In this document: piece by piece, positions 13,501-50,040 of the stretch
Numbering within the stretch: the first letter of the stretch is position 1
How the letters are laid out: every line of letters begins with the position of its first letter
NCBI GenBank assembly: GCA_044221725.1
Contig: JBGAON010000005.1
Span: 160,001-224,000, forward strand
Direction of reading: 5' to 3'
DNA: 64,000 bases
DNA from: Elusimicrobiota bacterium
Lineage (GTDB): Bacteria; Elusimicrobiota; Elusimicrobia; F11
Notes under the pieces: model-generated
The model's input: the letters and a program-made list of their open reading frames with translations, nothing else
Told to the model about the DNA's origin: nothing
Databases searched by the model: none
Position numbers and translations under genes: made by a program

Positions 13501-16500
13501 CGCACCACCGTGAACGGGAAAGAACAAGAGGTCGATGTGTATGTTCGGTCGCCGGCGAATTATTCCGACGGCAATGGTCAGCCCATGGCGACGCGCCTCA
13601 AACACAAATACGTCATCGCTCGAGCGGATCGCTCCGCCAGCGGCTTGGGCCCAATTCTTTCGCGCACGCACGAAGAAGTGTTCTACGAAGACGAAGCGGC
13701 GCGCATTCCGGATTTCTTGCTTAAAGCCGTCAGCGAAATGAAGCGAAAAAACACGGGTCGTGCGTCGGAAGTGGGGCGCGTGGTGCGGCTTTTGCAGGCC
13801 GACGGTCGCAATATTATCGATGCGGACGGTGTCGCGCCGGTGGTGCGTCATTCGGTCAATCTTGGTTTCGACTATTCGATGTTCAATGACAAAAACGTTC
13901 ATGCGCGTTTGTCCGGCAGTGTTGCGAGCGTTCGTGTCGATCATGCGAAAGACACCAGCGGACGTTGGTACACGAGGAAGCCGATGATTGAGTTTTATCA
14001 AGGCGAGATGAACGTGGCCCGGTTGGACCGCGAAAAGGGAGTGGCTTCGTTCAAACGGTCCGAAGGTGAAATCAACGATCCACAAAAATTTCCAGACCGT
14101 GAAAGAGCCGGTTGGGACGATTTTGAATTTAAAGCAGCGGACAAAAATTCCGCCGGCGATATCGGTGATCTCAAGTATTACAGTATCGATGCACAGATTT
14201 TCGATCTGCTAGCAAACCCGAATTCTATTCCGGCCGCGAAGCGTGCGTTTCAGTCTTATCAGTTGAACCGGCTGACACAAAATTTCCAGTGGAACGAAAC
14301 GGTGATCATGGACGAATGGGGGCATGCGCTCGCGTACATTCGTCCGGATCCGCTGTACTTCGATATCAACCGTCGTGTGATCGCGATCAATGGATACGAC
14401 GGCAAACAAGAAAACGTCGAGACCGGGAACGTGCGCGAGACAATCGTGCGAGCCTACGATCAGATTTCGAAATCCATTGGTTTGGAAGACCTTGGAAAAG
14501 CGACCGCGCAATTACCGAATGGCATTATTAATTTCAACAATCCAAACGTGGCGGGCTTGAACGAAAAAGGCGTGTCGCTTTTTGAAATTGTGGACTACCG
14601 AAGCGCCAAGAGGTTTTTCGCGTTCTTTGACACGTTGCACGAAAATTCGTCGATCGCGCGCATTGAAGGCGATGGTGCGCGAAATTTGCGGCGCATTATT
14701 CTTCCGCGATACAAAATCGATGTGCCGGCAAACGAGCGGGATAAATTCAACATCCTCGGCGATCTCGAGGCCACGGGCGAGCGTACGTTCGAAATGGATA
14801 ACGGAACCGTTGGCAACCAAACGTATCGTTCGCGTGTGGTGCTCGACAGAAACTTAATTCCGCGGTTGATTGCACAAATGGAAAACGAGGGACTGAACCT
14901 CGTAGCGAAAGCGATTCAGGGACCGCAAGTCCTCGCGTACGAAGTGGAGTCGCTACAAAAACCAAATCCGCAGGACCCGAACGCCGAACAGAAGGTGATG
15001 TCGAAATTTACGGCCATCTTCAATAAATTCCAACAGCACGTGAAGATCGACCAGCGGCCGAACGAGCAGCGCCTCATGCGCACAAACATCAATTTTGCGT
15101 TTTTCGATCCGGAGCGTCCGTGGGTGGACTTGGGCGGGATCAGTTACGACTATCGGGGCGACAAAATCGGAGAGGCGGTCGGCTTGTCCGTGACGCTAAA
15201 ACCCGGTGATTCGCGTTACGATATTCCGGGCACAAAACGCGTCATGGTGCGCACACTGGGGCTCAAGTCCGGATTCATCGAACATCGTTCGAACGACGAC
15301 GGTGTGGTGGAAGCACAAGATACGGGGGAATTCGTTTTTCCGCGCGAAGGAACCAATAATTATGACGAGCTATACGCACGCGTGTTTGAAGAGCGCTCCC
15401 GCATCACGCTCGAATCGTTGAAAACAGGAAAATGGGAAGAAGCGCAACGCGCCGCCGAAAACGATTACCGGTATTACGCGCGCCTCGCTTTTGACTTCAA
15501 ACCGTACAGGAATTTCACGGCCTCGCATTTGCGTCAGCTTGGTGCCGCCTATCAAACGAAGGCGTTTCTTTATTCGAACAACGTGCTGTCACCGTTCGCG
15601 AGCAGCACTTCAACGATGATCAATATTATGACCGACGATGCGCTCGGTTTTCTTGTGGAATCGTTCCGGATGGGAACCGGTATCTATCGAGGCGAAGAAC
15701 TTATCACGACGCGCAAAGAAACCATTGTGAACGGCGACAAAGTTATGGTGTCGCATGGTCGGTGGAAAACCGGCGCCGTTAAACCCGAAGGGGTTTCGTT
15801 GGAGAAGTGGGTCGCTGACAACTTCGTGGAGCGGTTGCGGTTCTTCTCGTTCATTGATCCGACGTATCCGGGTTCGTTGGCGCACCACGGAATCGCGAAC
15901 ATAACCGCGGTGTTCCGCGCAAGCGAGAAAGGTCTTGTGATGTCCTCGCGCGCAAACTCCACGAGACTTCTTCCGAACGGCGACGTGTTCTTCGGAACGT
16001 TGCGCGGCGTTAGCGATGTTGCACTCCCGGCGGATCTCACGCCATTCCAATTGTTGGAATACGCGCGGAAAAATGTGCCGACGCTGCCGATAACACCAAT
16101 TGCAATCGAAGGTGAAAGAAAAGACGCTCTTGGGCGCTTGAAGGCGAAATTCAGCGGATACCAAGAAGCCAATGAAAAAGGTTACCCGAGCGATCTCACC
16201 GCTCCACAACGCGTGGTGTTCTTGGAATATCCGGTGGACATCAAAGATTTCGGTTCGGTGTTTGCGTGGCACGAACTTTTGTCCGACCGCGGAATCGAGT
16301 ACGAATTCAGCCGGGGTAAATTCAATCGCGAAGCTTATGGCGACAGTCGTCGCCTGGATACATTTAGCAATCTTCGCATTGTGAACACGCGCGTCGACGG
16401 CGTCGTCCATCGTGTGTTGAATTACACGGTGGACAGTCGACGGTCCGGCGGCGCGATCCTTGAAAAAGAAGTGAACCTCGATGGTTTGCCCGAGGACGAC

Positions 16501-19500
16501 ATTTACGCGGGCGAATTTGGCATCGATTCGCGCAACCTCATTTATTACGGTCTCGATCAATTGCCGGCGCGCAGCATCGGAAAAACGGGAGAACGCGAAA
16601 GCTTGCGTCATTTGTTCCAGTACGCGACGCTCGAAAAAAATGGGCACAAATACCTAATTACCCGAACGTTGGACCTCACGCGCAATCCCGCATTGGAGCG
16701 GATTTATCCGGACGACATGGAAGTTCGGCGCGACGGTATCGTGATCTACAAACGCGTGAATGGACAGATCTCACCGTACGAAGACAATCTCGTTCTCGAC
16801 CCGCGCAACGAATTCAATCGCAGCCTGGTTGCAAAATTGTTTGGCCAATGGTTGCGCCCGTCGTGGGCAAAGGAAGCGGAGCGTTTGATCGCGGAAGCCG
16901 ACGCGAACGGTTTGTTCGAGTTCACCGAAGGCTCGCGCCAATATATTCGGGAGTCCGGAAAGAATTTCGGTCAACTTAAAGGCGCCGCGCAGCTCGCTTA
17001 TTACGAAAAAGGCATTCACTTGAACGCCATTTTTGCATTGGCCATTTCCAGCATGCTCGCGTTTGGTGTGTTCATGTGGAAATATTTCTTGCCGTGGCGT
17101 GCGTTTCGGCGCGCGCCGTTCCGAGCGAACGGAATGTCCAAGGCCGAAGTGGGACAATTTTTGTCGCCGACCGACACGGCGGCGTACATTTCGTTCCGTA
17201 ACCGCGTCGGATTTATAAATGAGACCGACAAAGAAGCACTGCGCCGCGTGATGAAGCACAGTCGCGATAAAGCCACGTTCGAAAAATTCTGGAACCGGTT
17301 GTCGTTCCACGAAGGTGGGAACGTCACACCGACTTACAAAGCCGCGTTGCGCGTGACGACCGCCGCACTCGAGGCGACCAATTTCCGGACGGAAGGAACC
17401 GAATTGGGCCAAGCGAGCGACGTGTTAGGGCCGATCATGGCGCCGATTCACAGTTTTGTTGATAACAGATTCCTCTCCGCCCGGCAGATTGCAACGATCA
17501 TTAACGATGTTGCCGATCGTGCAACCAATGGCGGAGTTAATCGCGTCCAACTGCGCGAGCGCATTTTGCAACAACTGATCAAGAACGCGTATTTCAATGA
17601 TTTCGGAATGAAAGAAAGCGTGAAAGAAGTTTTCCGTGTTGAAATTCGAAAACTGTTTGAAGCCTCGGGTTTTCGGCTCGGTGAGTTCGACACGGAATAT
17701 TACGTGGAACATGCGATCGCCGAATTGGGTGCGGTTCCGATGGATTACGTGGCCGCTGCTTATGTGGCCGACGATTCTCCAAACAAAGAATTGGTTACCG
17801 CAAAGAACACGTCCAAGTTCATCAAAAATATTTTTATCGCGGAAAACCGGCGCTTGTGGCGTCCGGAAGATGAGAATGAATCGACGCGAAATCATGGTCA
17901 GTCGGTATTGGGCTGGGGGGCAACGACGCTCGAAGAATATGTGCTCTTAAACACGATTGTGCCGCGGTTCATTCCGGTCATGAACACAAACACGCCGGCG
18001 GCTCACTACTACGCGAATCAAATTTTGCAAAAGATTCGCAGCGGAGCTTCGCACGAGAATATTCAACAGTTCATGAAACGCCACGAGCGGTTCTGGTACC
18101 AGGTTCATAAAGACCAAATGACCGTTCGCCTTGAAACGAATCGCGACATGCGTATTCCCGGGTTGTCCTATGAAAACGACACCGAAAAGACCTGGACATT
18201 CTTGGCAACGTGGGACGAATTCAATGAATTCTTCCGTTACCTGCAGTGGGGTTCGGACATGACGCTTGATGGTCGGTTGCCTGAGAATCTGCGGAACGAT
18301 GCGGCGTTCATCCGTCGTTTCCGCGAGAACCAGACGCGCGCAGGGGAATTGCTTCGAAAGGTGAGTGACGGTGAATTTGATTTCGGACGTCCCCAGGCGA
18401 ATTTGCGTTCGGACGTAATTCAGCGCGCGGTCAACGACGGCATGCGCCCGCTCGTGCGCGATACACAAAACGCACTGAACATTCCGCGTTACGATTCAGA
18501 GGGCAACGAGAATGACACGATCGCCTATGTTTATAAACTAATCACGGATCCGCGCGTGTGGCGCGCACCGACGATGGCGCGACTTGTGAAAACCGTTTTC
18601 ACGGCCGGCTTGGCCGCGTTCATGATTCAGGTCGGTGTCGAGCTTCCGTATGTCGGCGGCGTGGTGGCGCTCGCGTTCGCGTTAAGCCAGGTTCATTACA
18701 CGCGGTTCGTTACATCATCGAATGTTGGCGTGATTCGCCAGGTTTTATCGTGGGGGGCACTGGCGGTTGTAGCGTTCCTCCTATTATTAGGCCCCGGTTT
18801 GGCCTTTGTCGGTTACGATTTCGCAACCACGTTCCCCATCATGGGAATTGATACTTCGGTTAAAGATGTGATGTTGACGGTTGGTACCGCGGCCATCGTT
18901 CCGTTCCTCATGGGTATCTATATGAACAAGACCGTGTACCCGGGTCGCCAAGGCAAAGACACTCTTCGCAACATGCGCGCTGCGTTCTTCTGGTCAATGG
19001 TCACCGTAATTTCTCTAGCGTTTGCGTTCTTTGTGTGCGCGTTTTTGGTTGTCACCATTGTGTTTATGCCGGTTCCGTTTGAAGTGAGCGGCCTCGGTGT
19101 GCTCGCGCCGTGGACGCGCGTCGGATTTTTGATGCTTGGCATGGGCCCTCTGCGCGATATGTTTTTCCTTACGTATTTCGGTGTCGCGAATTTGCTGAAA
19201 GGTATCGTGCGCATTTATGTGCTTCGCGAATACGAATTTGCGAAAGCGCGCACGTACGACACGAACGCGCATGGGTGGCAAAAAATCTATCGCGTGCTTC
19301 CTCCCGCGCGCGCGGTGTTCCTAGCTTCGGCTGTGGCGCTTGCCGTTACAACGGTTGTGCTGGCGGTCGGCGGAACGTTGGCGCCGCTTTACGTGGCGTT
19401 GGGGCTCGTCGTAGCCGCGGTGGTTTTCATGTCGTCCATCGGAATGCAGGACCACAGCAAAGGCGCCGTGCAACTGGTGCCCCAAATGGTCGCCAACGAC

Positions 19501-22500
19501 CCGGAAATTCTCACGGTGATTCGCGAGGTGTTCTTGCCAGATTGGCTCGGCGAAGCGTATTTGACCCGACAGGAACACGACCGAATCTTAAACGCCATCA
19601 ATGCGCTTCAACCGGAAGTTGAGCGTTTGCAAAATTCTCGAATCTTTGATGACTCCAACGAAGGGAACGGTTTGCTGCGCTTAATCAATAAAGACGTTCA
19701 TGCAAGCGCCGCAATGAAAAATCTCGTGGACGCGCTGAGCGAAAAAAATATTTCTCTGCCGGAGATGCGAGGTTTTATTCAAGACGTCGTGAACAAAGCG
19801 TTCCGCAAAGACATTCCGGCGGCCCCGAAGAATTTCGACGAACTTCGCTCGGTGACGTATCAGATCAGCGGATACAACGAGCCTCCCTATGTTTTATGGG
19901 AAGAGTTCAATAAGAAGACGAACGAACAAACGCAGTTCGGTATGTTGGCGGCGTCTTATCCGGAACAATTCGCGCTTCTGGTCAACAGACTTCAGTCGGA
20001 GGGTCTGTTGTCGCTTCAACAGCGACTGGATTTGGAATTCGCGAAAACGAAACCAAGCCATATTGTTAACACGTTGAAGCGGGGTGTGGACGACCAGGCG
20101 ATCAAGCAAATAGAACACTGGTTCAACATGCGTTCTCAAACAATCTACGCAAACTTTCAAGGTGCCGTGAAAGCGCGAGCGGTGTATTCCTATTACATTC
20201 GTAAGTTCTATCGCGAGAAAACTGGCTCCGATCCAGCCCCTGACGTTCTCAAGAAGCTGGTGGAACAGAAAGTGCAAGTCGTCATTAACCACACGATGGC
20301 CGCCGATGAATTTATTCGGTTCTTACGTGAAGCATTTAAAGGCAAGTCCTTTAACAACCATTCGTTGAACAATCTGTCACTGAACGAGTACATGGACCTC
20401 ATGAAACAAGGATTGGATTTCCCTGCGGAGACCAATAACAATAAATTGAAATCAGGGTTTCCATTCCCGGCGTGGAACCATTCGACGGCGAAGAGTTACA
20501 TGGATTTCCTTGTTAAAGAAAACGTCGATCTGCAATACGGTGCCCGCGCGCAAAAATCCGACGCACACCAAGAGAAATACGAAGGATGGATGCACACGGA
20601 CATGAACGTGCGTGGTGAAGTTGTCATTGCCTGCGACTTTGATATGCGCCACGACATTCAAGAAACATGGATGGTTCCGAACGTGGGCCGCGAATACGAC
20701 ATCGACCCAACGTTCGGTGTTGGTGTCTACTCCGGATACATCTTCACGGAACCGATTTCGCCGCAGGCGCTCGTGATGGCGAAGATGGAAATGGGCTGGT
20801 TACAGGGCGAGCAGCCGACGAAGCGCGAAATCGGCACTTTAGAAGCGTACGGAAAATTCACTTATCGTCGTCAGATGATCAGCAACCTGGAAGCGTTGCC
20901 CGCTCACCTCGTTGCCGAAGATGCGAAAACAGCCGAGCGCGTTTTGACTTTTGGAGGATCAACTGGGCACCTTAGTTACTACAAGCTCGGAAAAGGGCTC
21001 AGCAATCAATGGGGCGGTTCCTTAAATCCATTGCGCAAATGGTCCGGCGACGCGCCGGAGTCGATTTACTCTCCTTTGTTTGTGAAGTTTATGTTCAGCC
21101 CTTATCAGCACTGGACGGTGAAATTGGATGCGTTGATGAGCTATGCGTTTTATCTGAAGAAGCCATCGGTGTTTCGAACGACGATCAATGTTCTCGTGCT
21201 TTTCTATTTATTGAACTTCAATCCGTGGACCGGATTGCCTCTGACGATGTTCCTTTCAAGTTTGATCATTTCGCAAGCTATCGGTTACGGTGCGATGATG
21301 CTGTACGTGGAAAAACACGGCTGGATCAAAGGTGTCGCAATGTTCGCTCGCGACATGGTATGGCCAATTTTCCCGTTCGCAACCACGATCATTCCTCAAT
21401 ATTCCGACTCGGTAACGAAGGGATTTATGAAGAAGGCAAAATTCCTGCGCACCGGCGGTAAAGGTGGCGCGCTCGGCCGCTACGATTTCGAAGATCTTTT
21501 TATATTTATGCAATACGGCGTTTTCCCGGGCGTTATCATGACGTTCCTGGTCGGATTTGCATCGTTTGATGTTTTGAAATTTTCGATCTGGTTCCCACAG
21601 ATACTTATGGTGTCGTATGGGTTTTGGACCGCCGCGTTTCTGTTTAACTCAACGTTTGATCGGCAAACAGTTTGGACTCGTCTCGCTCGGTTTGTTTACG
21701 TTGGGGCATTGATTGCCGCGGTTGTCGTACCGCTGGTGTTGGATTTCCCAATTATTGCGATGCTCGCGCCGACGCTTGTGCTCATTTATTGGGTGGATGC
21801 GAAGGTATTTAAACAACGGACGCGCTGGCAAAACATCGGAGATATTTTCTGGCGTGCGCCCAAAGCAGTTTTAAAAGACGCACTTAACAATTCTACACGG
21901 TTGCTCGAAATAGTGACGCAACCGATCGCAACGGTCGTCGCTTTGCAACGAGCGATTCCTTTGCCATTCCGGATTACAACGTTGGGTTTAACTGCGGCGC
22001 TAATCGTCATTGTGAATCAGGCGACGTTCTACGTTTTTGCCGGTGTTCTGATTGCGCTTATCGTTGGTGGCGCTGTTTCGCCTCGCTTTGAAAGATGGCT
22101 GCACCGCCCAAGTTATTCGTGGTCGCGCCTTGCTGGAACGGACGAGGAAATCTATCGAAAATCTTTAATCGCCATAAAAATGGCGCAGTTGTTAAAAGTA
22201 AGCCCGCCGGATCTGGGTGTATTAAATAGCTTTGTCGGTCCTTACTTTGCACAGGGCGATGATGGCAACCGAAGAAACGATACTCCAGGGTTTTATAACT
22301 CTTTAGCATCGATGATGACGGGTCCGGCGCGACAAAATCCATCCAGGGTTCTGTTAGATAAAATCAGCCGGCACACCTCAAATGTCGAAAACCACGTTGC
22401 TGCTGTCGTTCCTCGTTACGATTTATATCGTTCCGCGTTTGATGACTTGAACGACTACCGCGGGCGAAATCCATCCGATAAAAATGGAATTGATCAACGA

Positions 22501-25500
22501 CAGAAACGCCTAAATGAAGTTATCAACGCGTATACGAATTATCAAACCGCCCAAAAGGAATTGGCGGATCTAAGGAAGAGCAACACACCAGACCAGGCCA
22601 AAGCAAACGAGCTACAAGAAAAGATCACAAGAAATGAAGGCATGCTTGGAAATAGCGGTGATTATAAACGCTTCGTAAGTTTAGCGGAATCAATTCTAAA
22701 TTTCGGTCCAACCGTTATTCCGACGAACGAACCGGTGTGGAACGATCGTTTGGAAGATTTGATTGAGGGCGGGAATGTGACCGTCGAGTCCGCGTGGGCG
22801 CGAATTTCGGCGAGCGAACGTCGGTCGCTGTTGGATATGCACGATAACGATTTGGGCCGCGCCCAAACTTATCTGTGGGACCGCTTGAGAAATTATATCG
22901 ATGCGCGCATTCGCATTGAGATTGAATACGTGTTGCTCGCCGACCATGCTTCGTTGCTGTCGGATGTGCGCGCTGAATTCATTCGTGTTCGTGCGCTCGG
23001 CGCGGAAAATCCCGATTTCAATCGTGAGCGACAGGCGTTATTGGACCGTATCGTGGAATCGGACGCGATGCGTCCATCAACGGAAATTTTGTTGAGTCTT
23101 TCGAACCCGGCCGACATTCAGCAAAGGATTTATCAAGCTCTGAATGATCTTGTGCCAGTCCCGGCAGCGCGTCAAGAACAACAAACTGTGGAACTGACGC
23201 CACTTCCGCCGCCACCGGCACCACCAACAGCGGAGCAAGTTGCCGCCCAGAATGCCGCTCAAGCAGCGCAGGCAGCGAAAGCCGCACGAAACAGAACGGC
23301 TGCGCGCGTTTTTGGTGTGCTGATCGAAAACCGGGAACGATTGCTGGGCCGGTACGGAAGCCGCCTGCGCCAGCTGAGCCGCGTGAACCCGTTGTCCGTG
23401 GATAGCAACGAAGTGAAATCGGTTCTGAACGCGATCGTGAAAGATTCTCGTTTCGCCCCAGCATGGCCGATTTATCTTGAGCTTTCGGGAAACAACGAAC
23501 AAGAAGCGCAGAAATTGTTGCTGAACGATGTCGTCACGCTCATCGATTTGCAAACGACCGCAGAAGCAGAATACGCAAGTGATCCTTTGGCGCTGAAAGA
23601 TTTGGCGCTCAGCGTTCAAGAGGAAGCGCTCATAATTAAGCGAAACGGTGGACTTTCGCAGGGAGACAAGCGCGCATTTGAACAGAGGGTTTTCCGGTTC
23701 CTTGGCGCGTCGGCGACAGAGATATTAAAGGACAAGAAAACAACGGTTGATGCTGCCACGCGGGTTTCTGACTACGAGATTGTGCAGAAGGCGTACGACG
23801 AAGCCGTCAAATTAGCGGAAGCGGACATCACAAAAGAAATCAATCCGCTCAAAGGCGACGCGTTCCGCCACCATCTCGAGAACAGTCGGTTGAATGCGGC
23901 GCTTCAAGACACAACCATCAGCGAATGGAAACGTTGGAATCTCCGTTCAAAACGCGACCGCGAGATCGCGGCGTTCGCTAGGGATTTCGTGAAACTGGTC
24001 AACGCGCAGAAACGGGTTTCGCCAGCGGCAACGGTGGCGCTCAAGGCGCGTTGGGAAAGCGAAGGTCTTAACGGTCGCGCACCGCCCAGCTCAGATATCG
24101 TTAAAGAGGCCTATTGGAAAATCCCGTCTTCTCTAAGAAAAACCTATTCCGAAGTTACCGGATTCAATCCATCCTCATCCGAACCAAGGGTCTCCGCGGT
24201 TGGAGTAAACGCCGATGCGATCGGCGATGACGTGGCCCGCCAACTGCTACGGGACGCGTACGACAGCAACTACGTTATTGAAGGCTCCAAAAATTCCGCT
24301 GGCGACGCGGAACTGGACCTAAACGAACAAAACAAAGCTATTGCTCAGCGTCTGATCGGTAGCGACGGCATGTCCGCTCTTAAAGCGGCGGTGGAACTTG
24401 CGCTATCCATTGTTGATAACGGTGATGACGATGGTTACCGCACCCGCGATCAGATAAAAGAAATCACAAAAGACGGTCGCGTCGTCTTTGTCTTCATCGA
24501 ATCGAATCACCCGACGTGGAAAAACAATTTCTTCCTTTGTTTCAATAGCTCGGACGAAAACATTCTTGCGCTTGGCGGCCGCGGATTGAACAAAGATCAG
24601 CGCAAAGCTTACGTGCCGGCGGCGCTTGTTGTCGGTCTCATGGGAATGCGTACGGCCCACGAAAACGGTTCCAAAACAAAGCTGAGCCGGCAAGAAATCG
24701 ATTTGGTGTTGCGCCTTATTGTGCGCCACGAACTTCAGCACGCGGCCGAAAAAGAAAAGGGGAATGCCACGTGGTTGAATCACGATGCCGAAGTCACGGA
24801 AATTCTGAATTTGCTCGCGAAGGGCGGCTTCTTCCCTGGCGCGAGCGCGCAGCCAGGCAATACGCCAGACGTTGCGAAAATAGCTGTGGTCGGCGGTCTT
24901 GTTGATGAGGCAAATAAAGACGGACGGATCGTGTCACTATTAGCGCCGGTGACCGCCGATTCTCCTGTTCGTTACCGTTACGCGAAAGCGGAACAAAACC
25001 TTAACGGCGCGCCGGATATTAATTTGGCGATTGAGCGCGTGTTCGAAATGCAACGCGAAGCCGTCAACACCGATTTCGACAACGCCGGTAAAGGAAAATA
25101 CTTCAAGATACTCGCGACCAGCGGTTCAATCCTCACGCGTCGCATAAAAGTTGGCGCCAATCAGTTCGTGCGGTTTGTTGTGAACATTGCGCGGCAATCG
25201 AAACCGGGCGGATTGGGGCTTTCGCCAGTTTGTTTCCTCTGTTGGAACACGGTTCGCACAAGCTTCCCGCACGAGTTCGGCATGGTGCTCGGAAACCTGC
25301 GAATTTATTTCAATCCCACCGCGGTGTGGCCGCCGACGGTGTTTGGTCCCGCGTCGGAACAGCCGCAAGCGCTCGTCGTGACATTGAATGATCAGGAGCA
25401 TCCGAGCGTTTCTCAAGGAAACATTAGTAAGGTGAACACACTTCAAGAGTTGCTCACGCAGTGGGTGCGCGCGAACCAATCCCCCAGTTTGCAAGATGCC

Positions 25501-28095
25501 GATGAACAGCGCAGCGCGATGCTTGCGCCGAAACATCGCTTCCGAATGGCGATCAATGGCTTGGGCGCCGGCGCCAGTCAAGACCATATCCACGCGCATT
25601 GGGTGCGTGAGCGTTTTGAAATTGAATCCGTGAAAATTAACGATGTCGTTGATTATCCGGCGCAGGCGCGGGTGACAATCGGCACTGTCGATATTTTGCC
25701 GGCGGCTATCGGTGCAACCGCCGAACCGGTTCTCGGTTTGGCACTCGAGGCGAACATCAACGATGTCCCGACTCTCGCGCAGGCCCTTAGTGATGCGCTA
25801 ACAAAAATCAGCAAGCACGGCGAAGGATACGATGTCTTTTTCTATCAGACCGTCGCCAACAACGCGACCGTCCTACGTGTAATTGTGACCGGTCGTCGCT
25901 TTGAGCGGACAAAAACGTTTGACGCCCCTTGGGGTGCCAATCAGGTGACGATGCGCGAAGTAACAATCGAAACCGAAACTGGGAAGGGACTTTTTGAAAA
26001 ATCCACAAACGACGAACTGCTGCAGGCCTATCGCGAAGCGCTCGCGGAGACTTCTTACACAGCCGATCAAACGCGAACGCTGCTCAAGGAAATCCTTCGG
26101 CCAAACTTTGAATTTGGAAATGTCGTCCGGTTTTCCAACGACCCGGTTGCCGGACGGACATTCCGAATCGGAGGACCGATTGATCAAACGAATCTGTGGT
26201 ATTCGGCAGCGGATAGCACGCGAGGCGAAGCGAATTCCGTCATTGTGACGGAGAAGGATTACGGTCCGACCATCGAAGTCGACAACGAATTCATGGGCGT
26301 CAGGACTTACAAAAAAGTATTGGAAGACCCGGCGACCGGAATTGCGTTATATGAATTCGGCGGCTACGCGGCGGCTGACCAGCAGCACAACATCGGACAA
26401 CATGGTTTCCCGTTCGGACTTTACCGAAACGTGGATGTGAAACGTCTGATCACTATTCTTAGCGACGTTCAGCGCGGTGTCGATCCAGCAACAATCCCAA
26501 TAACATCACTGAAAACAAGTGAGCGAACTCCTTCTTCTTCGTTTACGCCGGTCTATTCTTATGCAATCTCAGGTTATTTTGGCGGACGCACACATCACGC
26601 GGAAAAACCGGTCTACTCAAATTATGTGTTCTATGTTCCGGCCAACCAACAGAAGCCATTCAGCCGCGCCTTTGAACCGCAGGATCGCGAAGTGGGTGCG
26701 GATCACAAAACCGCGTCGTGGAGTACTGTCGCACGTCAGAAGGGAATGTTCCTGGAGTACACGATCAAAGGAACGGAAACCCCCGTCAGTTACGACGATG
26801 CGGTGCTTGTTCGCGACTTAACCGAAGCAAATGTGCTCTCCAGAGAAAATCCCACGTCGCGCGCCGAAGCGCTTCGTTTGCTCGGACGAACAGAAGACCA
26901 ACAGCGACAGTTTGAAAAACAGATTTTGGAGGAACTGACGACCGGTTCGCCGGCCCAATCCCGCTCACCGATTTTCCAATTCGCAATCACATTCTTCTTT
27001 GCGGGGTTGGCATCTGTTGCCGGGACGCTTTCGTGGTTGCTCACAAACCAAATTGCACGAGAGGCCTGGATTTTTATTGCCGCGTCTTTGACCGTGACCG
27101 GATTGGTCTTTGGTTGGGGCGTGTACGAAGCGATATCTGTTACCATCGCGAAGCGGACGTACGAACGGCATCCGTTGTCGACGGACGAAGCGAATTTACG
27201 GCTCGGCCGCGCCCTTGAGCGAATTCCGGCGGATCTGTTGAGCGGCAAGACCACGATCAGGCTCGCCGAGAACAATGAGCTCGCTCTTTTTGAATCCGGT
27301 CGCACCGAAGAAAGCACGGTCATAATCCACCCCGCTTTCGTTGATAACTTGAATATTTTGTTGCACGAACTGAGCCACCGTGATGGTGCTGGGGAGCTCC
27401 GGGCGCGCTTCCGCGAATGGAAACTGGCGTGGAGAATCGCTACGAACGAACGCGTGCAAAAACAACTTGATCAAGATGCGCGCACATTCGCTTATATACG
27501 GGTTGCGCACGAAGCAAGCGTTGGCACAGGAGCGAGCAAACAAGGGCTTGTGAGTCTTTTATCCGGCATAAATGTCGCAGGGCCCATTGGGCTCGAAGAG
27601 TTCGTAACGAACCCGCGGCAAATTGCGCATCGTGTGTACGCGGCGCGCAAAAAACTTTCGGAACAATCCGCTAACGCGTTTATGTCCACGCCGGCGAACG
27701 TCGAAGGCGTTTTGAAATTGGTTTATATCCCGAGAGCGAAATCGGCTCCAGCGATTGCGCAAGAAATTTCGGCACTCTTGCAGTTGCCGGCGGCAAAGAA
27801 TCGGAGAATAGATATCGTCGTAAAGACGCACGAAGAACTGGAGCGTATGAATGTTAGCGATCTTTTGTCTGTTGACGGGCAGCGCGCCGCCGCGCTTCGC
27901 CTCGTGTTTGCTGAAGGCGCGCAGCGGCCGAAGAATTTTGAGAATCTCATTCGGACCATTGGCGCGAGTTACCGTTCCGTTAATTTCGATTGGGGCATGT
28001 TAAACGCTGATGGCACGTTCGTGCGGAAAATGAGTATCTCCGAGTCTTTTGAGTTGCGCCGGTTTGAGGATGCTATCGTAGGTTCGCAAGCGTAG
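1507..28095 (+). CDS. Giant multidomain membrane protein (8862 aa): shared N-domain, beta-rich regions, six-hairpin glycosidase-like region, GT48/FKS1-like glucan synthase, HIT-type nucleotidyltransferase, two HExxH motifs
   Basis: Uninterrupted 26.6-kb ORF with RBS and signal-like N-terminus. Motifs include WFNMRSQTIY, RGEVVIACDFD, YIFTE, AED, YYKLGKG, CFLC...GAGASQDHIHAH, HELQH and HELSH, with several TM bundles. Confidence 0.9.
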   Translation: MIQFRRVSTMIFAPKTIAILLVSVLTYETVGTPLAEASQYSSLWSERRKTSSATQNENGQNLLASLPSQSLLKQMPSVKAALPSSVVTTPISNEARKIPPVLRALVAAVPQNQGIVREIYAPLSSSNEPIVLAQDVHMNSEAQMNLAGVIQNIVRENKIDVIGVEGAFAPFDFALARKSGSTESRTQLAKAFMDKKLMGAASYIGLVNDSLPPIVGVDDEKHYDANVLAYLTIRPMKKKTQKDLQKLKRNLDERKAQEFSKEMLAFDALRSGYHEGTIPFGVYVKKLSALSYQLVDSSSSPDSGKRIAESSLAVEQFIAAYEMEKSLDFARVEAERRRVIEKLASVLKGEDVTTLINHSVAYKNGQIGFGTYYRFLKNLCESNGVRLSDTTAFDNYVRYVLLSDGIKADQLFAEITNIEDRVTKALARTPVEKQLADEAEHLALANKLIEFELTPEEWAKYSSSGHDFGRDLGALEDLTAFENFYREADIRSHRMLSNLLGRNRQRASVLLTGGFHTSQMTSLLKEKKIPYIVVSPKLTKVSEDESGSAYLSEFSREKTPLEKMFSGSKLFVLPKTQMAGSAGGLTTFKAFVVFLIGIAGLSTGKTRADVDLTINNVPVHAVVQRGDIRGAVETVELSEKGTPQTYSLLYPSLSARGMDFFFNRVASPKRLVMALGGILSAVLLSPAPAQAALAPRLYGVAAETLWGAAGGALIFSLIIGNFLWTRFNTREPRVSPQPDNRFRPGLDQLEQKETPANLNVWVDPNGVVRPDVLTGGFSDQESKSGLPSVEVRLADGFHFSNGDLVRVSLSGPAGSQSSGWVPAADRMVFPYHGETGMGLRAVHADGTDAVATAVPGSFATAIPVSEAAPGNLGSFDLFTVRTPPEEPVQDRISVNNQSVNGDRVQLQYSLPSDMLVRFSHVNAGANGQTELGSGTDFLPATQFKDGYAILIANGPLRAGNSADIGFAAYRLDASGNYVEVKFQPGEPDLPITATLANAAMIPDNRLTPTNTYTLQPDGMGGFFMNVPAGTKSVAFTVNSLANADQFVFTQSHKNGNGDIVVDALTPFASDDQHRYVLNLLPGVTSVGIAAFADNQIVSIPDSEFAIGTVFENIAADAMANNGRLLTLTQDQKAAFVVVDPANTGHVQIFAPDQPNANEFFIVRNRTDEFGNTVAIDAQIVPDNQTFYSVNVDDPRTTSVSIRPLSVSDKGFSAVPFANGLLKADLTRQSVANALPMTVRLLQPGDKQGTSFVMTVNAEVRNVKLRVNDLNGDRLFVTYSQEIAFEDGTKANVPMVAAIEPDNEGSYSFNKPEGASGFGFQELIRNADGSFDFTTIPLDSIVIAQTARRADPNARAMELRILTPAFFANAEGVNELRSNILGIAIPEGAQSFDVNEIGLRIPLSDHVKFNFTNAEGKIISQFVLPPFGSSAYNALVSSGKLRVTVNNGYFTSIVLNLQTAGATAFAIEVTRPNGAPEPVVGTVTVRFSPTVGQRSIAPIAVSPSTNPQPVVNIFPQFPSNPSVGLIGFGGSSLDNTTSSVFSYSNMSGRWQYDIGIGWYWVDYTKSGAPSITPAKNRPQLEDVPLSYSIVISYRLEIGNETPNVQALLRNDGTLIVERDINIDQAPLESVTLNGLVDDNGNQIESVNVRFVARGRERELKNLKVTNGKIRIRTPIDLPTTTRFEIRSAEGKRVGKPSRIEVNQNDEGLLPDQAPIVVDKMPTPLKTQLPWKGVQFVSARHTSLGDAPDAAEQNAVAAIEGPFVGQASQTNGTSRASETTSSPSFVVRVLWNYFGWLIGPVLFVAFFIRETVEKKLKAIPRADSAREPIVIDGLVPPPNNLIPAVADMPAAVPNSTVAVSEGRSPPVRHLIFAAVFYAALFFVVLPFVSTTLAHWGDLLSALPSTSPWIFPARALQSIVGLSSWMLFFTGNVVMVLMLLNLQTRFHVGRKALLVQSLVLSAAAAAGLVSVSTGLFILATIGFVAISRTRLGAAVGQWIAHPFKEADPKEKKQLSLLGRFQQSITHLPLGLMKTMYSFGFEPIDRLVLLMMGRPVAGERSRSERLFNRMPLVAQLMALPFFAANALLGKRLKLKLYSFATQIVLITVFSGLAVLIAPMFGLDPTLTLSWMMNFNMLDPTATGWAHNVIQDGGVVGALLQIFTVFAILNSYVLQVILTFFSSRRTQPNLGIGRRFSLSLRSGFSAFKFLEGLHWVSFEIEILKYMSGFVSPLHDLVLTIEGHSGVLGAGDEAVQRAVAPFGVSPDNLTRFIPWTTGLSHSELMQLAPIQRTIRDQAKELSAVVKARDLSEVANRQVWLKALRSERDTVLKSIKALEDQAAVSPAERAMVAERMSAENKWIQEIDALAAAVTIDTITLEQKQIVVAKLGERLQSSEAQLAKIKDVATKATAKHRSHVELAAPADTNKEVTVPADTKNGAGGGGDKNKTLNNDDTASLPKNSANVLASIQKNVDESVKRGERAVAAAQRETAAKDRAVAQKELDALAPALTALAGRYEKVTKELQALRDRLKAATSEKVVGVDLRAANERFDAESKRTKDLVARYDNDQRPDVRHFLNIVERNGIVLRPDNTYVALTRADVPKLKFDAAGKLTLAGSNGTVWLGQQTIERLRLHAVASALGADVEATLLQLGRNPVVDAQFEFGRAVSVASGREYSVPQNRIGGLAVSSDGSLVAESVEGTLRVQLSEKGLDVFEPMWLGKKIEVLEKQAESLKQKRVQDISAALEQKNEELASVETDRNVLRDQVAALMARINGETVPPNVVNNDVVLVNHRDNVQSFADLKEKVLAESEKLKQKNRNDKGFTLEDPTDPQSLSRVVQYTNTQEIRNELKAGNIGRARDLLKKSLKGPSSHGGLATTIDVRSFDLRANEQSEDFGPMLLMVQAGLEVLVTDAQKGNFDKELFFQLKDLLDYALFYQLPTGEIPHGVTWRLLTPELQIDAKAFRMMHLLTGEEKYLKAADASEQALMKMYDPQSKKFLARREDGRLDEPADVPGWAMSQLGPEKLKERGVDVEALVQRLREMPKDRFIVEWQVNRAFGLKRGIEYLRSIGNNAAADAAQKDLEKMTNFLLSLGMAYAYERDLNNPDKWVPALGKSMDWGVTTQSGTESNTTRVALEALARGTDPMRTLPDEAYVKARASVPKDNPARKPYFGRGTGPTWRTKEASRDLWFADARANAAKQLLKPDNNVLAFILPEKIGDPVEKIEYAGAASQDKLPPIAFKTIWLSAAPSWAKFDADGWALAPENLYQAGYRAIQRDENGRLYLWRLGVDVGEEAQLERNEGIIEMREWVRGKTRPGRQIFVDPESGRTNFNWFAKRDTGYLYLLMQITGGIIVNESQARGNNITTSIGAFILREQLIADLETRRTVEAVAKKVTDPILRATLLDTLARGARTEDDPALRALSLRMAQVSHDEEFVRLRRLLRADPKLRAGSAELERYNDVRAQVMDRLTEVYATYRNARRAIFALNDVEARLGDRRNAADLKVISDAKNQLWISANGKREIFVFGKENVMAAERLLPMLAEPAKAELQRKIDFAKQHGLDLETPVLKIGPRTFGLPRQTAFDRIYFDRIDANAISIWLNAMAELDPAKQEQLRQEYEWARRTMTARWDKAGFVMIPGAIATEERAALAQMADDGVVRATEKQPRIVGSEPIYPMSLEGKVEAVEEILPQDRRIEGNTWVRITRAKLPPVLGVRSPRGEIIAVIRSNEFGKLKVNGRPLEELRFPLNEITSVSGDGLYLTMNEFDPVRGRFAGYSTYHFGANESNFAAKGFMTTVGRALVARNPLTRVELTANPNIASEITARVRSNNGDSWVDTYSYPTFQDPESRIKERVYPTGRVEKYSDYRFNAVTGQWVAGRTEIYQAGALKSVKLVTGIDERGRVSIEEQTVLMRPKAGNAKEYEPRFVPTRRDLMDGPHLVMRDDLSKNERTIYNLEREKEYERAGFRVEVPAEAFELRNGAVGNKVADFTVSVEESNAVLASVTITRTTVNGKEQEVDVYVRSPANYSDGNGQPMATRLKHKYVIARADRSASGLGPILSRTHEEVFYEDEAARIPDFLLKAVSEMKRKNTGRASEVGRVVRLLQADGRNIIDADGVAPVVRHSVNLGFDYSMFNDKNVHARLSGSVASVRVDHAKDTSGRWYTRKPMIEFYQGEMNVARLDREKGVASFKRSEGEINDPQKFPDRERAGWDDFEFKAADKNSAGDIGDLKYYSIDAQIFDLLANPNSIPAAKRAFQSYQLNRLTQNFQWNETVIMDEWGHALAYIRPDPLYFDINRRVIAINGYDGKQENVETGNVRETIVRAYDQISKSIGLEDLGKATAQLPNGIINFNNPNVAGLNEKGVSLFEIVDYRSAKRFFAFFDTLHENSSIARIEGDGARNLRRIILPRYKIDVPANERDKFNILGDLEATGERTFEMDNGTVGNQTYRSRVVLDRNLIPRLIAQMENEGLNLVAKAIQGPQVLAYEVESLQKPNPQDPNAEQKVMSKFTAIFNKFQQHVKIDQRPNEQRLMRTNINFAFFDPERPWVDLGGISYDYRGDKIGEAVGLSVTLKPGDSRYDIPGTKRVMVRTLGLKSGFIEHRSNDDGVVEAQDTGEFVFPREGTNNYDELYARVFEERSRITLESLKTGKWEEAQRAAENDYRYYARLAFDFKPYRNFTASHLRQLGAAYQTKAFLYSNNVLSPFASSTSTMINIMTDDALGFLVESFRMGTGIYRGEELITTRKETIVNGDKVMVSHGRWKTGAVKPEGVSLEKWVADNFVERLRFFSFIDPTYPGSLAHHGIANITAVFRASEKGLVMSSRANSTRLLPNGDVFFGTLRGVSDVALPADLTPFQLLEYARKNVPTLPITPIAIEGERKDALGRLKAKFSGYQEANEKGYPSDLTAPQRVVFLEYPVDIKDFGSVFAWHELLSDRGIEYEFSRGKFNREAYGDSRRLDTFSNLRIVNTRVDGVVHRVLNYTVDSRRSGGAILEKEVNLDGLPEDDIYAGEFGIDSRNLIYYGLDQLPARSIGKTGERESLRHLFQYATLEKNGHKYLITRTLDLTRNPALERIYPDDMEVRRDGIVIYKRVNGQISPYEDNLVLDPRNEFNRSLVAKLFGQWLRPSWAKEAERLIAEADANGLFEFTEGSRQYIRESGKNFGQLKGAAQLAYYEKGIHLNAIFALAISSMLAFGVFMWKYFLPWRAFRRAPFRANGMSKAEVGQFLSPTDTAAYISFRNRVGFINETDKEALRRVMKHSRDKATFEKFWNRLSFHEGGNVTPTYKAALRVTTAALEATNFRTEGTELGQASDVLGPIMAPIHSFVDNRFLSARQIATIINDVADRATNGGVNRVQLRERILQQLIKNAYFNDFGMKESVKEVFRVEIRKLFEASGFRLGEFDTEYYVEHAIAELGAVPMDYVAAAYVADDSPNKELVTAKNTSKFIKNIFIAENRRLWRPEDENESTRNHGQSVLGWGATTLEEYVLLNTIVPRFIPVMNTNTPAAHYYANQILQKIRSGASHENIQQFMKRHERFWYQVHKDQMTVRLETNRDMRIPGLSYENDTEKTWTFLATWDEFNEFFRYLQWGSDMTLDGRLPENLRNDAAFIRRFRENQTRAGELLRKVSDGEFDFGRPQANLRSDVIQRAVNDGMRPLVRDTQNALNIPRYDSEGNENDTIAYVYKLITDPRVWRAPTMARLVKTVFTAGLAAFMIQVGVELPYVGGVVALAFALSQVHYTRFVTSSNVGVIRQVLSWGALAVVAFLLLLGPGLAFVGYDFATTFPIMGIDTSVKDVMLTVGTAAIVPFLMGIYMNKTVYPGRQGKDTLRNMRAAFFWSMVTVISLAFAFFVCAFLVVTIVFMPVPFEVSGLGVLAPWTRVGFLMLGMGPLRDMFFLTYFGVANLLKGIVRIYVLREYEFAKARTYDTNAHGWQKIYRVLPPARAVFLASAVALAVTTVVLAVGGTLAPLYVALGLVVAAVVFMSSIGMQDHSKGAVQLVPQMVANDPEILTVIREVFLPDWLGEAYLTRQEHDRILNAINALQPEVERLQNSRIFDDSNEGNGLLRLINKDVHASAAMKNLVDALSEKNISLPEMRGFIQDVVNKAFRKDIPAAPKNFDELRSVTYQISGYNEPPYVLWEEFNKKTNEQTQFGMLAASYPEQFALLVNRLQSEGLLSLQQRLDLEFAKTKPSHIVNTLKRGVDDQAIKQIEHWFNMRSQTIYANFQGAVKARAVYSYYIRKFYREKTGSDPAPDVLKKLVEQKVQVVINHTMAADEFIRFLREAFKGKSFNNHSLNNLSLNEYMDLMKQGLDFPAETNNNKLKSGFPFPAWNHSTAKSYMDFLVKENVDLQYGARAQKSDAHQEKYEGWMHTDMNVRGEVVIACDFDMRHDIQETWMVPNVGREYDIDPTFGVGVYSGYIFTEPISPQALVMAKMEMGWLQGEQPTKREIGTLEAYGKFTYRRQMISNLEALPAHLVAEDAKTAERVLTFGGSTGHLSYYKLGKGLSNQWGGSLNPLRKWSGDAPESIYSPLFVKFMFSPYQHWTVKLDALMSYAFYLKKPSVFRTTINVLVLFYLLNFNPWTGLPLTMFLSSLIISQAIGYGAMMLYVEKHGWIKGVAMFARDMVWPIFPFATTIIPQYSDSVTKGFMKKAKFLRTGGKGGALGRYDFEDLFIFMQYGVFPGVIMTFLVGFASFDVLKFSIWFPQILMVSYGFWTAAFLFNSTFDRQTVWTRLARFVYVGALIAAVVVPLVLDFPIIAMLAPTLVLIYWVDAKVFKQRTRWQNIGDIFWRAPKAVLKDALNNSTRLLEIVTQPIATVVALQRAIPLPFRITTLGLTAALIVIVNQATFYVFAGVLIALIVGGAVSPRFERWLHRPSYSWSRLAGTDEEIYRKSLIAIKMAQLLKVSPPDLGVLNSFVGPYFAQGDDGNRRNDTPGFYNSLASMMTGPARQNPSRVLLDKISRHTSNVENHVAAVVPRYDLYRSAFDDLNDYRGRNPSDKNGIDQRQKRLNEVINAYTNYQTAQKELADLRKSNTPDQAKANELQEKITRNEGMLGNSGDYKRFVSLAESILNFGPTVIPTNEPVWNDRLEDLIEGGNVTVESAWARISASERRSLLDMHDNDLGRAQTYLWDRLRNYIDARIRIEIEYVLLADHASLLSDVRAEFIRVRALGAENPDFNRERQALLDRIVESDAMRPSTEILLSLSNPADIQQRIYQALNDLVPVPAARQEQQTVELTPLPPPPAPPTAEQVAAQNAAQAAQAAKAARNRTAARVFGVLIENRERLLGRYGSRLRQLSRVNPLSVDSNEVKSVLNAIVKDSRFAPAWPIYLELSGNNEQEAQKLLLNDVVTLIDLQTTAEAEYASDPLALKDLALSVQEEALIIKRNGGLSQGDKRAFEQRVFRFLGASATEILKDKKTTVDAATRVSDYEIVQKAYDEAVKLAEADITKEINPLKGDAFRHHLENSRLNAALQDTTISEWKRWNLRSKRDREIAAFARDFVKLVNAQKRVSPAATVALKARWESEGLNGRAPPSSDIVKEAYWKIPSSLRKTYSEVTGFNPSSSEPRVSAVGVNADAIGDDVARQLLRDAYDSNYVIEGSKNSAGDAELDLNEQNKAIAQRLIGSDGMSALKAAVELALSIVDNGDDDGYRTRDQIKEITKDGRVVFVFIESNHPTWKNNFFLCFNSSDENILALGGRGLNKDQRKAYVPAALVVGLMGMRTAHENGSKTKLSRQEIDLVLRLIVRHELQHAAEKEKGNATWLNHDAEVTEILNLLAKGGFFPGASAQPGNTPDVAKIAVVGGLVDEANKDGRIVSLLAPVTADSPVRYRYAKAEQNLNGAPDINLAIERVFEMQREAVNTDFDNAGKGKYFKILATSGSILTRRIKVGANQFVRFVVNIARQSKPGGLGLSPVCFLCWNTVRTSFPHEFGMVLGNLRIYFNPTAVWPPTVFGPASEQPQALVVTLNDQEHPSVSQGNISKVNTLQELLTQWVRANQSPSLQDADEQRSAMLAPKHRFRMAINGLGAGASQDHIHAHWVRERFEIESVKINDVVDYPAQARVTIGTVDILPAAIGATAEPVLGLALEANINDVPTLAQALSDALTKISKHGEGYDVFFYQTVANNATVLRVIVTGRRFERTKTFDAPWGANQVTMREVTIETETGKGLFEKSTNDELLQAYREALAETSYTADQTRTLLKEILRPNFEFGNVVRFSNDPVAGRTFRIGGPIDQTNLWYSAADSTRGEANSVIVTEKDYGPTIEVDNEFMGVRTYKKVLEDPATGIALYEFGGYAAADQQHNIGQHGFPFGLYRNVDVKRLITILSDVQRGVDPATIPITSLKTSERTPSSSFTPVYSYAISGYFGGRTHHAEKPVYSNYVFYVPANQQKPFSRAFEPQDREVGADHKTASWSTVARQKGMFLEYTIKGTETPVSYDDAVLVRDLTEANVLSRENPTSRAEALRLLGRTEDQQRQFEKQILEELTTGSPAQSRSPIFQFAITFFFAGLASVAGTLSWLLTNQIAREAWIFIAASLTVTGLVFGWGVYEAISVTIAKRTYERHPLSTDEANLRLGRALERIPADLLSGKTTIRLAENNELALFESGRTEESTVIIHPAFVDNLNILLHELSHRDGAGELRARFREWKLAWRIATNERVQKQLDQDARTFAYIRVAHEASVGTGASKQGLVSLLSGINVAGPIGLEEFVTNPRQIAHRVYAARKKLSEQSANAFMSTPANVEGVLKLVYIPRAKSAPAIAQEISALLQLPAAKNRRIDIVVKTHEELERMNVSDLLSVDGQRAAALRLVFAEGAQRPKNFENLIRTIGASYRSVNFDWGMLNADGTFVRKMSISESFELRRFEDAIVGSQA

Positions 28096-46612: not shown

Positions 46613-47384
46613 TCTTTTCGCTGCTGTGCTTTTGTTGGTGTCGCCATTCGTGTGCGCTGACGAACTTGTGTTGAAAGAAGGGAAATCAATCCAAGGAAAA
46701 ATCACGAAAGAAGACGCTGACGAGTACACCATTCTTATGGGCTCTCAAATGTATTTGCGCGTGGCGAAAGAAAAAGTGGCGCGCGTCGTGCGTGATACGC
46801 CGGCAAAACCCAACAAGCCCATTGTCCGGACACCGGTCGCGTCGCCAAAAGCAGTTAATGTCTCGACGGCAGTCGCCGCAGTTCCGTCGCCATCGTCCAA
46901 TGCTCCGGTGGCCGCAACAGCCGTGAAACCATCGCCGGCCAAGGCAACTCCATCTCCTGGAGTCGTTGCGACGCCGAGCATAAGTCCCGCAAAAGTCACC
47001 GAGCCACCACAGCAAACGGTAAAGAAAGGTGTCGTCACAATTGAGGAGAATGTGGCGGCATCAAAAACCGGGAAAACCACGCTGCAGACGGTGTGGGAAG
47101 GAACGCCTGAGAAAGAGGCCAATCAAACCAAGTGGAAAGCCGTGATCTTGCGCGCGACGATCGCGAACGATCCAACATCCCCGCACGCAAAACAGGAAGT
47201 GGACTCGCTGCGTTCTTCGCTTTCTTCGTTCGCTGAAGAACTGACGGCGTTGCGCGCCAACGACGAGAAAACGCTGCGGTCCGAAACCGACCGGTTGTTG
47301 GCGGTCATGCAGGATCACGCCAAAAAAAGATTGCAAGGGTTGGCGCGTCGCGAAAAAAAAGAATTTGACAAAAAACAAAAATAA
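46602..47384 (+). CDS. Secreted hypothetical protein with Pro/Ala-rich linker
   Basis: TTG at 46602 gives a signal peptide (IASLFAAVLLLVSPFVCA), followed by DELVLKEGKSIQGKI. Start inferred. Confidence 0.7.
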   Translation: MIASLFAAVLLLVSPFVCADELVLKEGKSIQGKITKEDADEYTILMGSQMYLRVAKEKVARVVRDTPAKPNKPIVRTPVASPKAVNVSTAVAAVPSPSSNAPVAATAVKPSPAKATPSPGVVATPSISPAKVTEPPQQTVKKGVVTIEENVAASKTGKTTLQTVWEGTPEKEANQTKWKAVILRATIANDPTSPHAKQEVDSLRSSLSSFAEELTALRANDEKTLRSETDRLLAVMQDHAKKRLQGLARREKKEFDKKQK

Positions 47385-50011: not shown

Positions 50012-50040
50012 GTTTCACGCTCCCCTCCAAAGGAGCTCTC

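Follow-up and report, generated by a model that had tools for sequence, protein, structure and literature searches.

Glycosyltransferase family 48 (GT48) comprises the synthases that make the main polymer of the fungal cell wall, which are the target of the echinocandins, and plant callose. GT2 enzymes carrying the DxD and QxxRW motifs can also make β-1,3-glucan, as in curdlan synthase. The kinship between GT48 and GT2, and the differences between their active sites, with neither the tryptophan nor the metal in GT48, have been set out in structural papers, in the sections of them accessible to us. In those sections, the DAN triplet at residues 1102–1104 of FKS1 occupies the site of the GT2 DxD motif (PMC10499315). 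The QRxRW motif, located in interface helix 2 (IF2) of GT2 enzymes, is represented in FKS1 by K1261 in place of the arginine, with the aromatic residue missing, and Mg2+ is replaced by K1246 and R1248 (PMC13249079). The available part of a preprint ties pyrophosphate binding in callose synthase to the RxTGR loop (10.64898/2026.05.05.722910), and the accessible portions of three papers report that N1104, E1155, H1195, R1248 and F1258 are necessary for full function of FKS1 (PMC10499315, PMC13249079, PMC12979857). Here, we analysed a 64,000-nucleotide stretch from an Elusimicrobiota bacterium (assembly GCA_044221725.1, contig JBGAON010000005.1, positions 160,001 to 224,000; hereafter, the window), in which a giant open reading frame (ORF) encodes a synthase module that resembles both families.

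No paper describing a prokaryotic GT48 was found in the literature searched, which covered open papers, with subscription papers and the CAZy listing outside the search. The accessible text of the GT48 literature, including PMC10499315, PMC13249079, PMC12715860, PMC3797821 and PMC12979857, names no prokaryotic member or intermediate. The main text of papers on giant proteins, whose supplements lay outside the search, does not mention GT48, nor FKS or callose where these were sought. FKS-like bacterial proteins have already been labelled PF02364 by automatic annotation. What is new here is the ordered series of motifs, the rooted tests and the prediction of metal dependence. We consider, with a probability of about 0.65, that the module is a membrane-embedded GT48-related synthase, predicted from its sequence and structural model to polymerize uridine diphosphate (UDP)-glucose in a metal-dependent and processive manner, and that it is likely part of a bacterial branch that diverged early within the lineage that gave rise to the eukaryotic enzymes.

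Kinship to FKS1 and BcsA

The module lies in an ORF of 8,862 amino acids (aa) at 1507..28095, found by ORF calling on the forward strand, as are all features with coordinates below that belong to it, and encoding a multi-pass membrane protein. A profile built from 12 DxD-side bacterial sequences without any FKS-like seed (profile A1) matched FKS1 (E 2.8e-14, in stretches within residues 832–1492), followed by Rhodobacter BcsA (E 2e-8, over the core). Another profile, made from six FKS-like bacterial sequences, reached E 1.7e-68 against FKS1, while the relative L043 matched the CelA model TIGR03030 with E 8e-9. The window domain itself matched neither TIGR03030 nor the Pfam GT2 families PF13632, PF13641 and PF03552, for which weak matches appeared in relatives only; by ESM Atlas features, it is nearest to GT2 clusters (0.90–0.92).

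An AlphaFold2 (AF2) model of 18229–21816 (1,196 residues) had a predicted local distance difference test score (pLDDT) of 79 and a predicted TM-score (pTM) of 0.82. Searching with this model in Foldseek returned Fks1/2 at all ranks from 1 to 12 (E 2e-13 to 2e-7), BcsA at rank 13 and Cgs at rank 43. The Fks-type fold, that is, a GT-A domain with a helical insertion followed by a transmembrane (TM) channel, was recovered by profile, AF2 and Foldseek alike. Upstream of the TM bundle, the sequence WDEFNEFF (18211..18234) in the accessory region is the equivalent of the eukaryotic YDDLN motif, as detected by an upstream-segment profile. This profile, derived from 97 prokaryote-type segments, gave 52 domain hits above 8 bits across 54 eukaryote-type GT48 proteins, against 0 for reversed decoys, which places the YDDLN region in both groups at profile level; PF14288 itself has no match in the window protein. 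Judged by profiles and predicted structure, kinship to FKS1 in fold and sequence demonstrably spans the module, starting at the accessory motif upstream and reaching as far as the final helices of the channel.

Motif spacing agrees with this kinship and with GT2. The distance from the ED aspartate to the tryptophan position is 40 residues in the window protein, in Escherichia coli BcsA and in the fungal and plant rows (80 of 95 rows overall), and the K1082-type lysine precedes the DxD by 20 residues in 79 of 95 rows. The DxD and ED aspartates are spaced as in GT2 enzymes.

Active site of the module

The TM helices that precede the glycosyltransferase domain (18724..19452) were recognized by hydropathy and as AF2 helices, in part of low confidence. 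They are followed by the GT-A catalytic domain, with a GT48-type helical insertion after its first strand (19780..21170), which profile A1 aligns to FKS1 residues 832–1009 and 1149–1275 and for which the AF2 pLDDT is mostly 85–98, in agreement with Foldseek. According to the profile alignment, GYNE (19870..19881) contains the equivalents of Y849 and E851, involved in uridine binding in FKS1. The K1082 equivalent (20575..20577) is a lysine in 138/138 rows of the four census groups described below.

The original prediction was that a GT48-like active site here keeps GT2-style signatures, namely a true DxD in CDFD at 20632–20643 and an xxKW motif with K at 21037 and W at 21040. All these coordinates are correct and lie inside the ORF. 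CDFD (20632..20643, aa 6376–6379, with D at 20635 and 20641) ends strand E798-803 of the model and aligns with FKS1 DAN, whose role as the counterpart of DxD is stated in the accessible part of PMC10499315. Its context reads CDFDMR, so it departs from the DAN/NQD pattern of GT48. The ED pair (20917..20922), equivalent to E1221 and the catalytic base D1222, opens helix H897-907 and does lie upstream of the lysine and tryptophan, as had been claimed. These two residues belong to PLRKW (21028..21042) in the IF2 helix. Profile A1 aligns LNPLRKW-type columns without gaps to LNFTTKI of FKS1, with the lysine at K1261 and the tryptophan at I1262. Given the ungapped alignment, the identical spacing and the equivalence of K1261 to the arginine of QRxRW in the accessible text of PMC13249079, the tryptophan probably occupies the QxxRW position. 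The comparison with QxxRW holds for the tryptophan and the basic residue, but the glutamine is absent and the motif reads P-x-x-K-W, so the full GT2 signature is missing. The AF2 model has the DxD at the end of a strand, the ED at the start of a helix and the K-W pair within the next long helix, with pLDDT near 90.

Other positions also align with FKS1. Interface helix 1 (IF1, 20788..20799) carries the E1173 equivalent and a tryptophan at the glucan-stacking position F1176, and AYGK (20845..20856) stands where FKS1 has HYGH. The F1297 equivalent (21148) lies ahead of the channel-forming TM helices (21170..21801), which are supported by hydropathy, by alignment to FKS1 1378–1492 and by the AF2 model. 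Two features went unmentioned in the original prediction, a GT2-type gating loop and a leucine at the R1248 position. The gating loop, FLRTGGK (21442..21462), is of the GT2 type (F..K) by alignment, and not of the GT48 type (Y..R), lacking the RxTGR pattern. At 20992..21000, the K1246 equivalent is retained (20992), but leucine (20998) replaces R1248, so that only one half of the pair that serves as the Mg2+ surrogate in FKS1 (PMC13249079) is present.

In sum, the donor-binding and catalytic equivalents Y849, E851, K1082, D1102, E1173, E1221, D1222, K1246, K1261 and F1297 are retained, including the ED pair and the Y849/E851/K1082/K1261 set of GT48, and the domain carries three signatures of the GT2 type, namely the DxD, the acceptor-site Trp and the F..K gating loop. 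The window domain is not filed as a canonical GT48, as it lacks a PF02364 match, DAN/NQD, R1248 and RxTGR, and it equally lacks the full QxxRW and any match to GT2 models. It is predicted to resemble both GT48 and GT2 in its working, and it groups with GT48.

It could be argued that the domain is a catalytically dead relic within a drifting giant protein, as it is diverged from all family models. The intact frame argues against this, and the equivalents of K1082, D1102, E1221 and D1222 are kept both here and in relatives at 53–70% identity; we regard a dead relic as very improbable.

A series of motif grades across the family

Out of 1.84 billion, profile A1 recovered 744 clusters with E<=1e-3, of which 297 reached E<=1e-10. 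For the census, the best 150 of the profile A1 clusters were combined with PF02364-labelled matches and the loci, from which 236 domains were extracted. Of these, 172 rows remained once fragments shorter than 480 aa, 8 duplicates and all but 5 of the 35 plant rows (30 rows) had been dropped. Within the phylum, the window domain is present in 17 of 401 genomes, always within frames of 3,000–11,000 aa, and PF02364 matches occur in 14 of 401 genomes, 7 of them above the cut-off. Three genomes are common to the two lists and thereby connect the window domain with true PF02364 members.

The 172 rows comprised 58 DxD, 17 DxN, 39 DxNQ, 24 eukaryote-type and 34 other sequences, with equivalents of K1082, D1102 and D1222 in nearly all of them. 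At the I1262 position, the DxD rows carry W (36), Y (11) or F (11), the DxN rows W (8), F (8) or Y (1) and the DxNQ rows mostly F (34), while all 24 eukaryote-type rows are non-aromatic. Arginine at 1248 is found in 12/58 DxD rows, 17/17 DxN, 39/39 DxNQ and 23/24 eukaryote-type rows. In the gating loop, lysine characterizes the DxD (51/58) and DxN (14/17) rows, and arginine the DxNQ (39/39) and eukaryote-type (22/24) rows. The motifs form a series across the family, from DxD/KW to DxN/KW, DxNQD/KF and the eukaryotic DxNQ/KI. In the GT2/GT84 outgroup, all 18/18 rows have D as the second DxD residue and R-W where the family has K-W, and the gating loop has F in 11/18 and K in 10/18.

Among the members of the family, P0112, P0126 and P0143 are apparently complete stand-alone proteins of 942–956 aa, with DxDH and with R-Y at the K-W position. 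L047–L050 and their relatives form a divergent clade with DRDH, FYGPG and R-F for K-W and an arginine that arose independently at the R1248 position; L047–L050 also have a long insertion ahead of the YG motif. In P0007 and P0008, from Omnitrophota, the GT48 domain occurs in fusion with RHS/YD-shell and peptidase C39 domains. A distinct PF13632 GT2 domain with R-Y at the RW position was found in a frame of 4,460 aa from the phylum of the window genome (L108, G037:C1:173430-174128) and was excluded from the trees.

Trees and topology tests

The original prediction also placed this protein in a deep-branching lineage, informative about the origin of the fungal and plant synthases, rather than among recent transfers from a eukaryote. 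In an unrooted FastTree of 171 rows, the eukaryotes form one clade within the DxNQD bacteria, the DxN and DADTE grades are further out, and the window domain falls in the DxD/KW clade. Rooting used 18 GT2/GT84 rows (BcsA, Csl-like GT2, PgaC, OpgH and Cgs-like); CrdS, CesA and chitin synthases are absent from the trees as named rows. P0207, P0208 and P0178 were put in the eukaryote group after the first tree and sequence inspection. The rooted LG+C20 tree (95 rows, 306 columns) gave the same nesting of eukaryotes, with a Shimodaira–Hasegawa-like approximate likelihood ratio test (SH-aLRT) value of 99 for the ingroup. A careful C20 tree of 35 rows supported the eukaryotes at 100/99, their grouping with L056 at 95/88, with all DxNQ at 100/100 and with the YGHS grades at 98/96 and 100/99; the window clade received 99/96, and the window domain and GT48 form a clade that excludes GT2/GT84 (ingroup 100/99).

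In approximately unbiased (AU) tests, a single bacterial clade was rejected with p 2.4e-4 (49 rows, LG+G4), p 9.2e-5 (35 rows, C20) and, after removal of 29 signature columns and with the outgroup limited to BcsA/Csl, p 0.032. Counting two of P0207, P0208 and P0178 as bacterial led to the same outcome (p 0.032). Grouping the window clade with eukaryotes was rejected with p 1.8e-40, and bacteria with fungi with p 0.005. In all trees, the window domain falls outside eukaryotic GT48 and is never nested in a eukaryotic clade, which bears out the deep-branching position, with other bacterial grades lying between the window protein and the eukaryotes. The evidence goes beyond that claim, as these trees suggest that eukaryotic GT48 likely nests inside the bacterial diversity. 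The notion of a GT2/GT48 intermediate stands for the family but not for the window protein, a side branch that is no closer to GT2 than the eukaryotes are once the signature columns are removed.

An ancient transfer from a eukaryote or stem eukaryote to bacteria, with DxD and Trp as reversions and the root misplaced by long-branch attraction to the divergent DxD branch, would fit the patchy distribution in the phylum (17/401 and 14/401 genomes), the mobile appearance of giant-protein modules, the low outgroup identity (~15%) and the finding that the DxD group is no nearer to GT2 outside the motifs. It is nonetheless unlikely, since a succession of several bacterial grades lies outside the single eukaryotic clade, in the unrooted tree as well, and roots at or inside the eukaryotes are rejected (p 0.032, 0.005 and 0.032, and 9e-5 under C20). 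It would also require DxD, Trp and the loop lysine to revert, and R1248 to be lost, to GT2 states. Even less likely is that bacterial and eukaryotic GT48 are sister groups, neither nested in the other. The weakest AU test, at only p 0.032, leaves some room for it, but this topology was rejected in 3/3 tests (49 rows; 35 rows with C20; signature columns removed), and the DxNQD bacterial grade and the eukaryotes alone share DxNQD, HYGHP, R1248 and the Y..R loop against the other bacterial grades.

Several points weigh against an early-diverging GT48-related synthase as proposed here. The window domain has no Pfam or NCBIfam match, staying below the curated cut-off of PF02364 too, and no match in a single-sequence search of PDB, and the best Foldseek TM-scores are just 0.43–0.46 on the 1,196-residue model. 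The FKS1 residues N1104, E1155, H1195, R1248 and F1258 are all replaced, and the product or linkage may, therefore, differ from that of FKS1. Leaving out the motif columns weakens the rejection of bacterial monophyly to p 0.032, and every rooted tree splits at least three ways at its base. On the trees, N at 1104 needs one change (95-row tree), R1248 three, Trp at 1262 four and the loop arginine eight, so that the last two sites are labile. One and the same branch bears both the D-to-N change and the gain of R1248, so that these count as one event and not as independent co-variation, and R1248 is also present in 4 non-N rows. Identity to 12 GT2 outgroup rows without the signature columns is flat (window 13.5%, DxD 14.4%, DxN-other 15.4%, DxNQ 14.9%, eukaryotes 14.7%), meaning that no general trend towards GT2 exists and that the root rests on ~15% identity. 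With 13.5% against 14.7% for the eukaryotes, the window protein is a diverged side branch with old motifs rather than a 'living fossil'. Sampling of eukaryotes is thin (plants, fungi, one oomycete, Bodo, one amoebozoan and unnamed rows). The 30 representatives looked up comprised 8 Omnitrophota, 1 'bacterium', 1 archaeon (P0113), 1 eukaryote and 19 without taxon, and 'bacterial' is, therefore, an inference for many rows.

P0113, of the DxN/KW grade, is labelled Candidatus Njordarchaeales archaeon and is a partial gene on a 2.9-kb contig; it may have been binned wrongly, or it may be an archaeal copy relevant to the route into eukaryotes. P0153 (DxNQ grade) and the Bodo saltans GT48 P0058 both carry an N-terminal domain resembling glycoside hydrolase family 72 (GH72), possibly a hydrolase-synthase fusion shared across the boundary between bacteria and eukaryotes.

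Proposed mechanism and evolutionary history

A metal-dependent enzyme is predicted because the DxD is present and the metal surrogate R1248 is missing. In the proposed mechanism, the UDP-glucose donor would be bound via the Y/E pair, K1082 and the metal, and the DxD would hold Mg2+ or Mn2+ against the UDP pyrophosphate, as in BcsA, with the lysine at 21037 and the loop lysine also contacting the phosphates. The tryptophan at 21040 would stack on the acceptor glucose and the ED aspartate would act as the base, giving inverting, processive synthesis. The chain would then exit via the TM channel and might there be trimmed or displayed by those parts of the giant protein that lie outside the cytoplasm.

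β-1,3 is predicted as the most likely linkage of the product, at odds slightly better than even. An enzyme of the same type and ancestry might instead make another product, such as a β-1,4 or mixed-linkage glucan or a polymer of another sugar, with a GT2-type acceptor site performing GT2-type chemistry. The acceptor-site Trp, the DxD and the F..K loop, all BcsA-like, point in that direction, as do the loss of FKS1 H1195, E1155, R1248 and F1258, the proximity to GT2 clusters in the ESM Atlas and the weak matches of relatives to PF13632 or CelA. Conversely, the entire module follows FKS1, including the upstream region and the glucan-stacking F1176 and F1297 positions, and we hold a different product to be a tentative alternative, clearly less probable than β-1,3-glucan.

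As regards history, a GT2-like ancestor would have acquired the GT48 architecture within bacteria. The D-to-N change and the gain of R1248 would have followed on one branch, then the replacement of Trp by Phe and of the loop Lys by Arg, and lastly that of Phe by Ile in eukaryotes. We lean, by a narrow balance, towards the view that fungal FKS, plant callose synthases and other eukaryotic GT48 descend from the synthase module of Omnitrophota/Elusimicrobiota giant proteins. Living bacteria would then keep each step of the conversion from a metal-dependent, Trp-bearing GT2 site to a metal-independent GT48 site (DxD/KW, DxN with R1248/KW, DxNQD/KF with the Arg loop, and the eukaryotic KI), with the window protein representing the metal-dependent first step.

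Genomic context of the giant ORF

The genome (2.8 Mb) is rich in very long ORFs. The giant ORF begins with an N-terminal head domain (1522..3270), which tblastn found in many other long ORFs of the genome; all 33 of 33 non-self matches of the ORF to its own genome lie within aa 6–622, and the synthase domain is single-copy there. Further along, 9814..11106 is conserved in L041, L043, P0068 and P0071. Its leads are weak, with ESM Atlas similarity of 0.75–0.78 to GH88/MGH1-like proteins and matches to cellobiose 2-epimerase at E 6e-4 (L043) and E 0.083; it may be an outer-side (extracytoplasmic) α/α-toroid sugar enzyme. A shorter segment resembling it is found in P0131, P0080, P0114 and P0120, which belong to other synthase grades, and a long region at about aa 3700–5150 of the giant protein recurs in many relatives. 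The synthase module is predicted to provide one concrete function inside mostly unannotated giant proteins.

Immediately 3' of the giant ORF, a gene with an integrase-core (rve) domain and HTH_38 (28164–29129) is presumably an IS30-type transposase. Two long ORFs (29212–35139 and 35237–44047) bear a glucan phosphorylase domain and a GT5 starch-synthase domain, both with the N-terminal head domain. They are followed at 44999–52767 by an Omp85/POTRA gene and, after it, Tad/Flp pilus genes (TadE/G-like, CpaB, ATPase and T2SSF). At 59210–64000 begins an open frame of 18,016 aa that extends past the window; a Pfam scan of its within-window part gave no match.

Comparison with known systems

The family provides natural sequences for each difference between the GT48 and GT2 active sites. 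Through it, one can test how metal independence came about and the acceptor Trp was lost, which residues decide between β-1,3 and β-1,4 linkage and where the eukaryotic enzyme came from. The stand-alone members of about 950 aa (P0112, P0126 and P0143) would be the easiest to express.

The processive GT-A fold, DxD and RW are shared with Cgs (GT84) and OpgH. These differ in motif spacing, and the family profiles miss Cgs-like rows, with OpgH marginal (1/3). Membership of GT84 was rejected on profile similarity, motif spacing and Foldseek rank 43.

With the processive GT2 enzymes BcsA and CelA (PDB 4p00 and 4hg6; TIGR03030), the window domain shares the DxD, the ED, the F..K gating loop and the Trp 40 residues past the ED Asp, preceded by a basic residue, with a profile match of E 2e-8 over the core. 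It differs in that the Q of QxxRW is missing and its R is a K, and in having K1246 and a large insertion of the GT48 type, and identity is only ~15%, with BcsA ranking below Fks in profile and fold searches.

The DxNQD FKS-like bacterial domains (L052–L058 and P0004–P0012, of which those with a taxon name are Endomicrobiaceae and Omnitrophota) have the same module, occur in giant proteins of the same phyla and are linked to the window domain by direct matches. Unlike the window domain, they pass the PF02364 cut-off and carry NQD, HYGHP, R1248 and the Y..R loop, constituting the grade nearest to eukaryotes.

With FKS1 itself, the window domain shares the fold, the GT48-type insertion, the YDDLN-like upstream region and the equivalents of Y849, E851, K1082, D1102, E1173, E1221, D1222, K1246, N1257, K1261, E1268 and F1297. 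It differs in having DxD instead of DAN/NQD, Trp at the I1262 position, Leu at R1248, AYGK where HYGH stands, an F..K loop instead of Y..TGR and Pro at F1258, in scoring below every PF02364 threshold and in being embedded in a bacterial protein of 8,862 aa.

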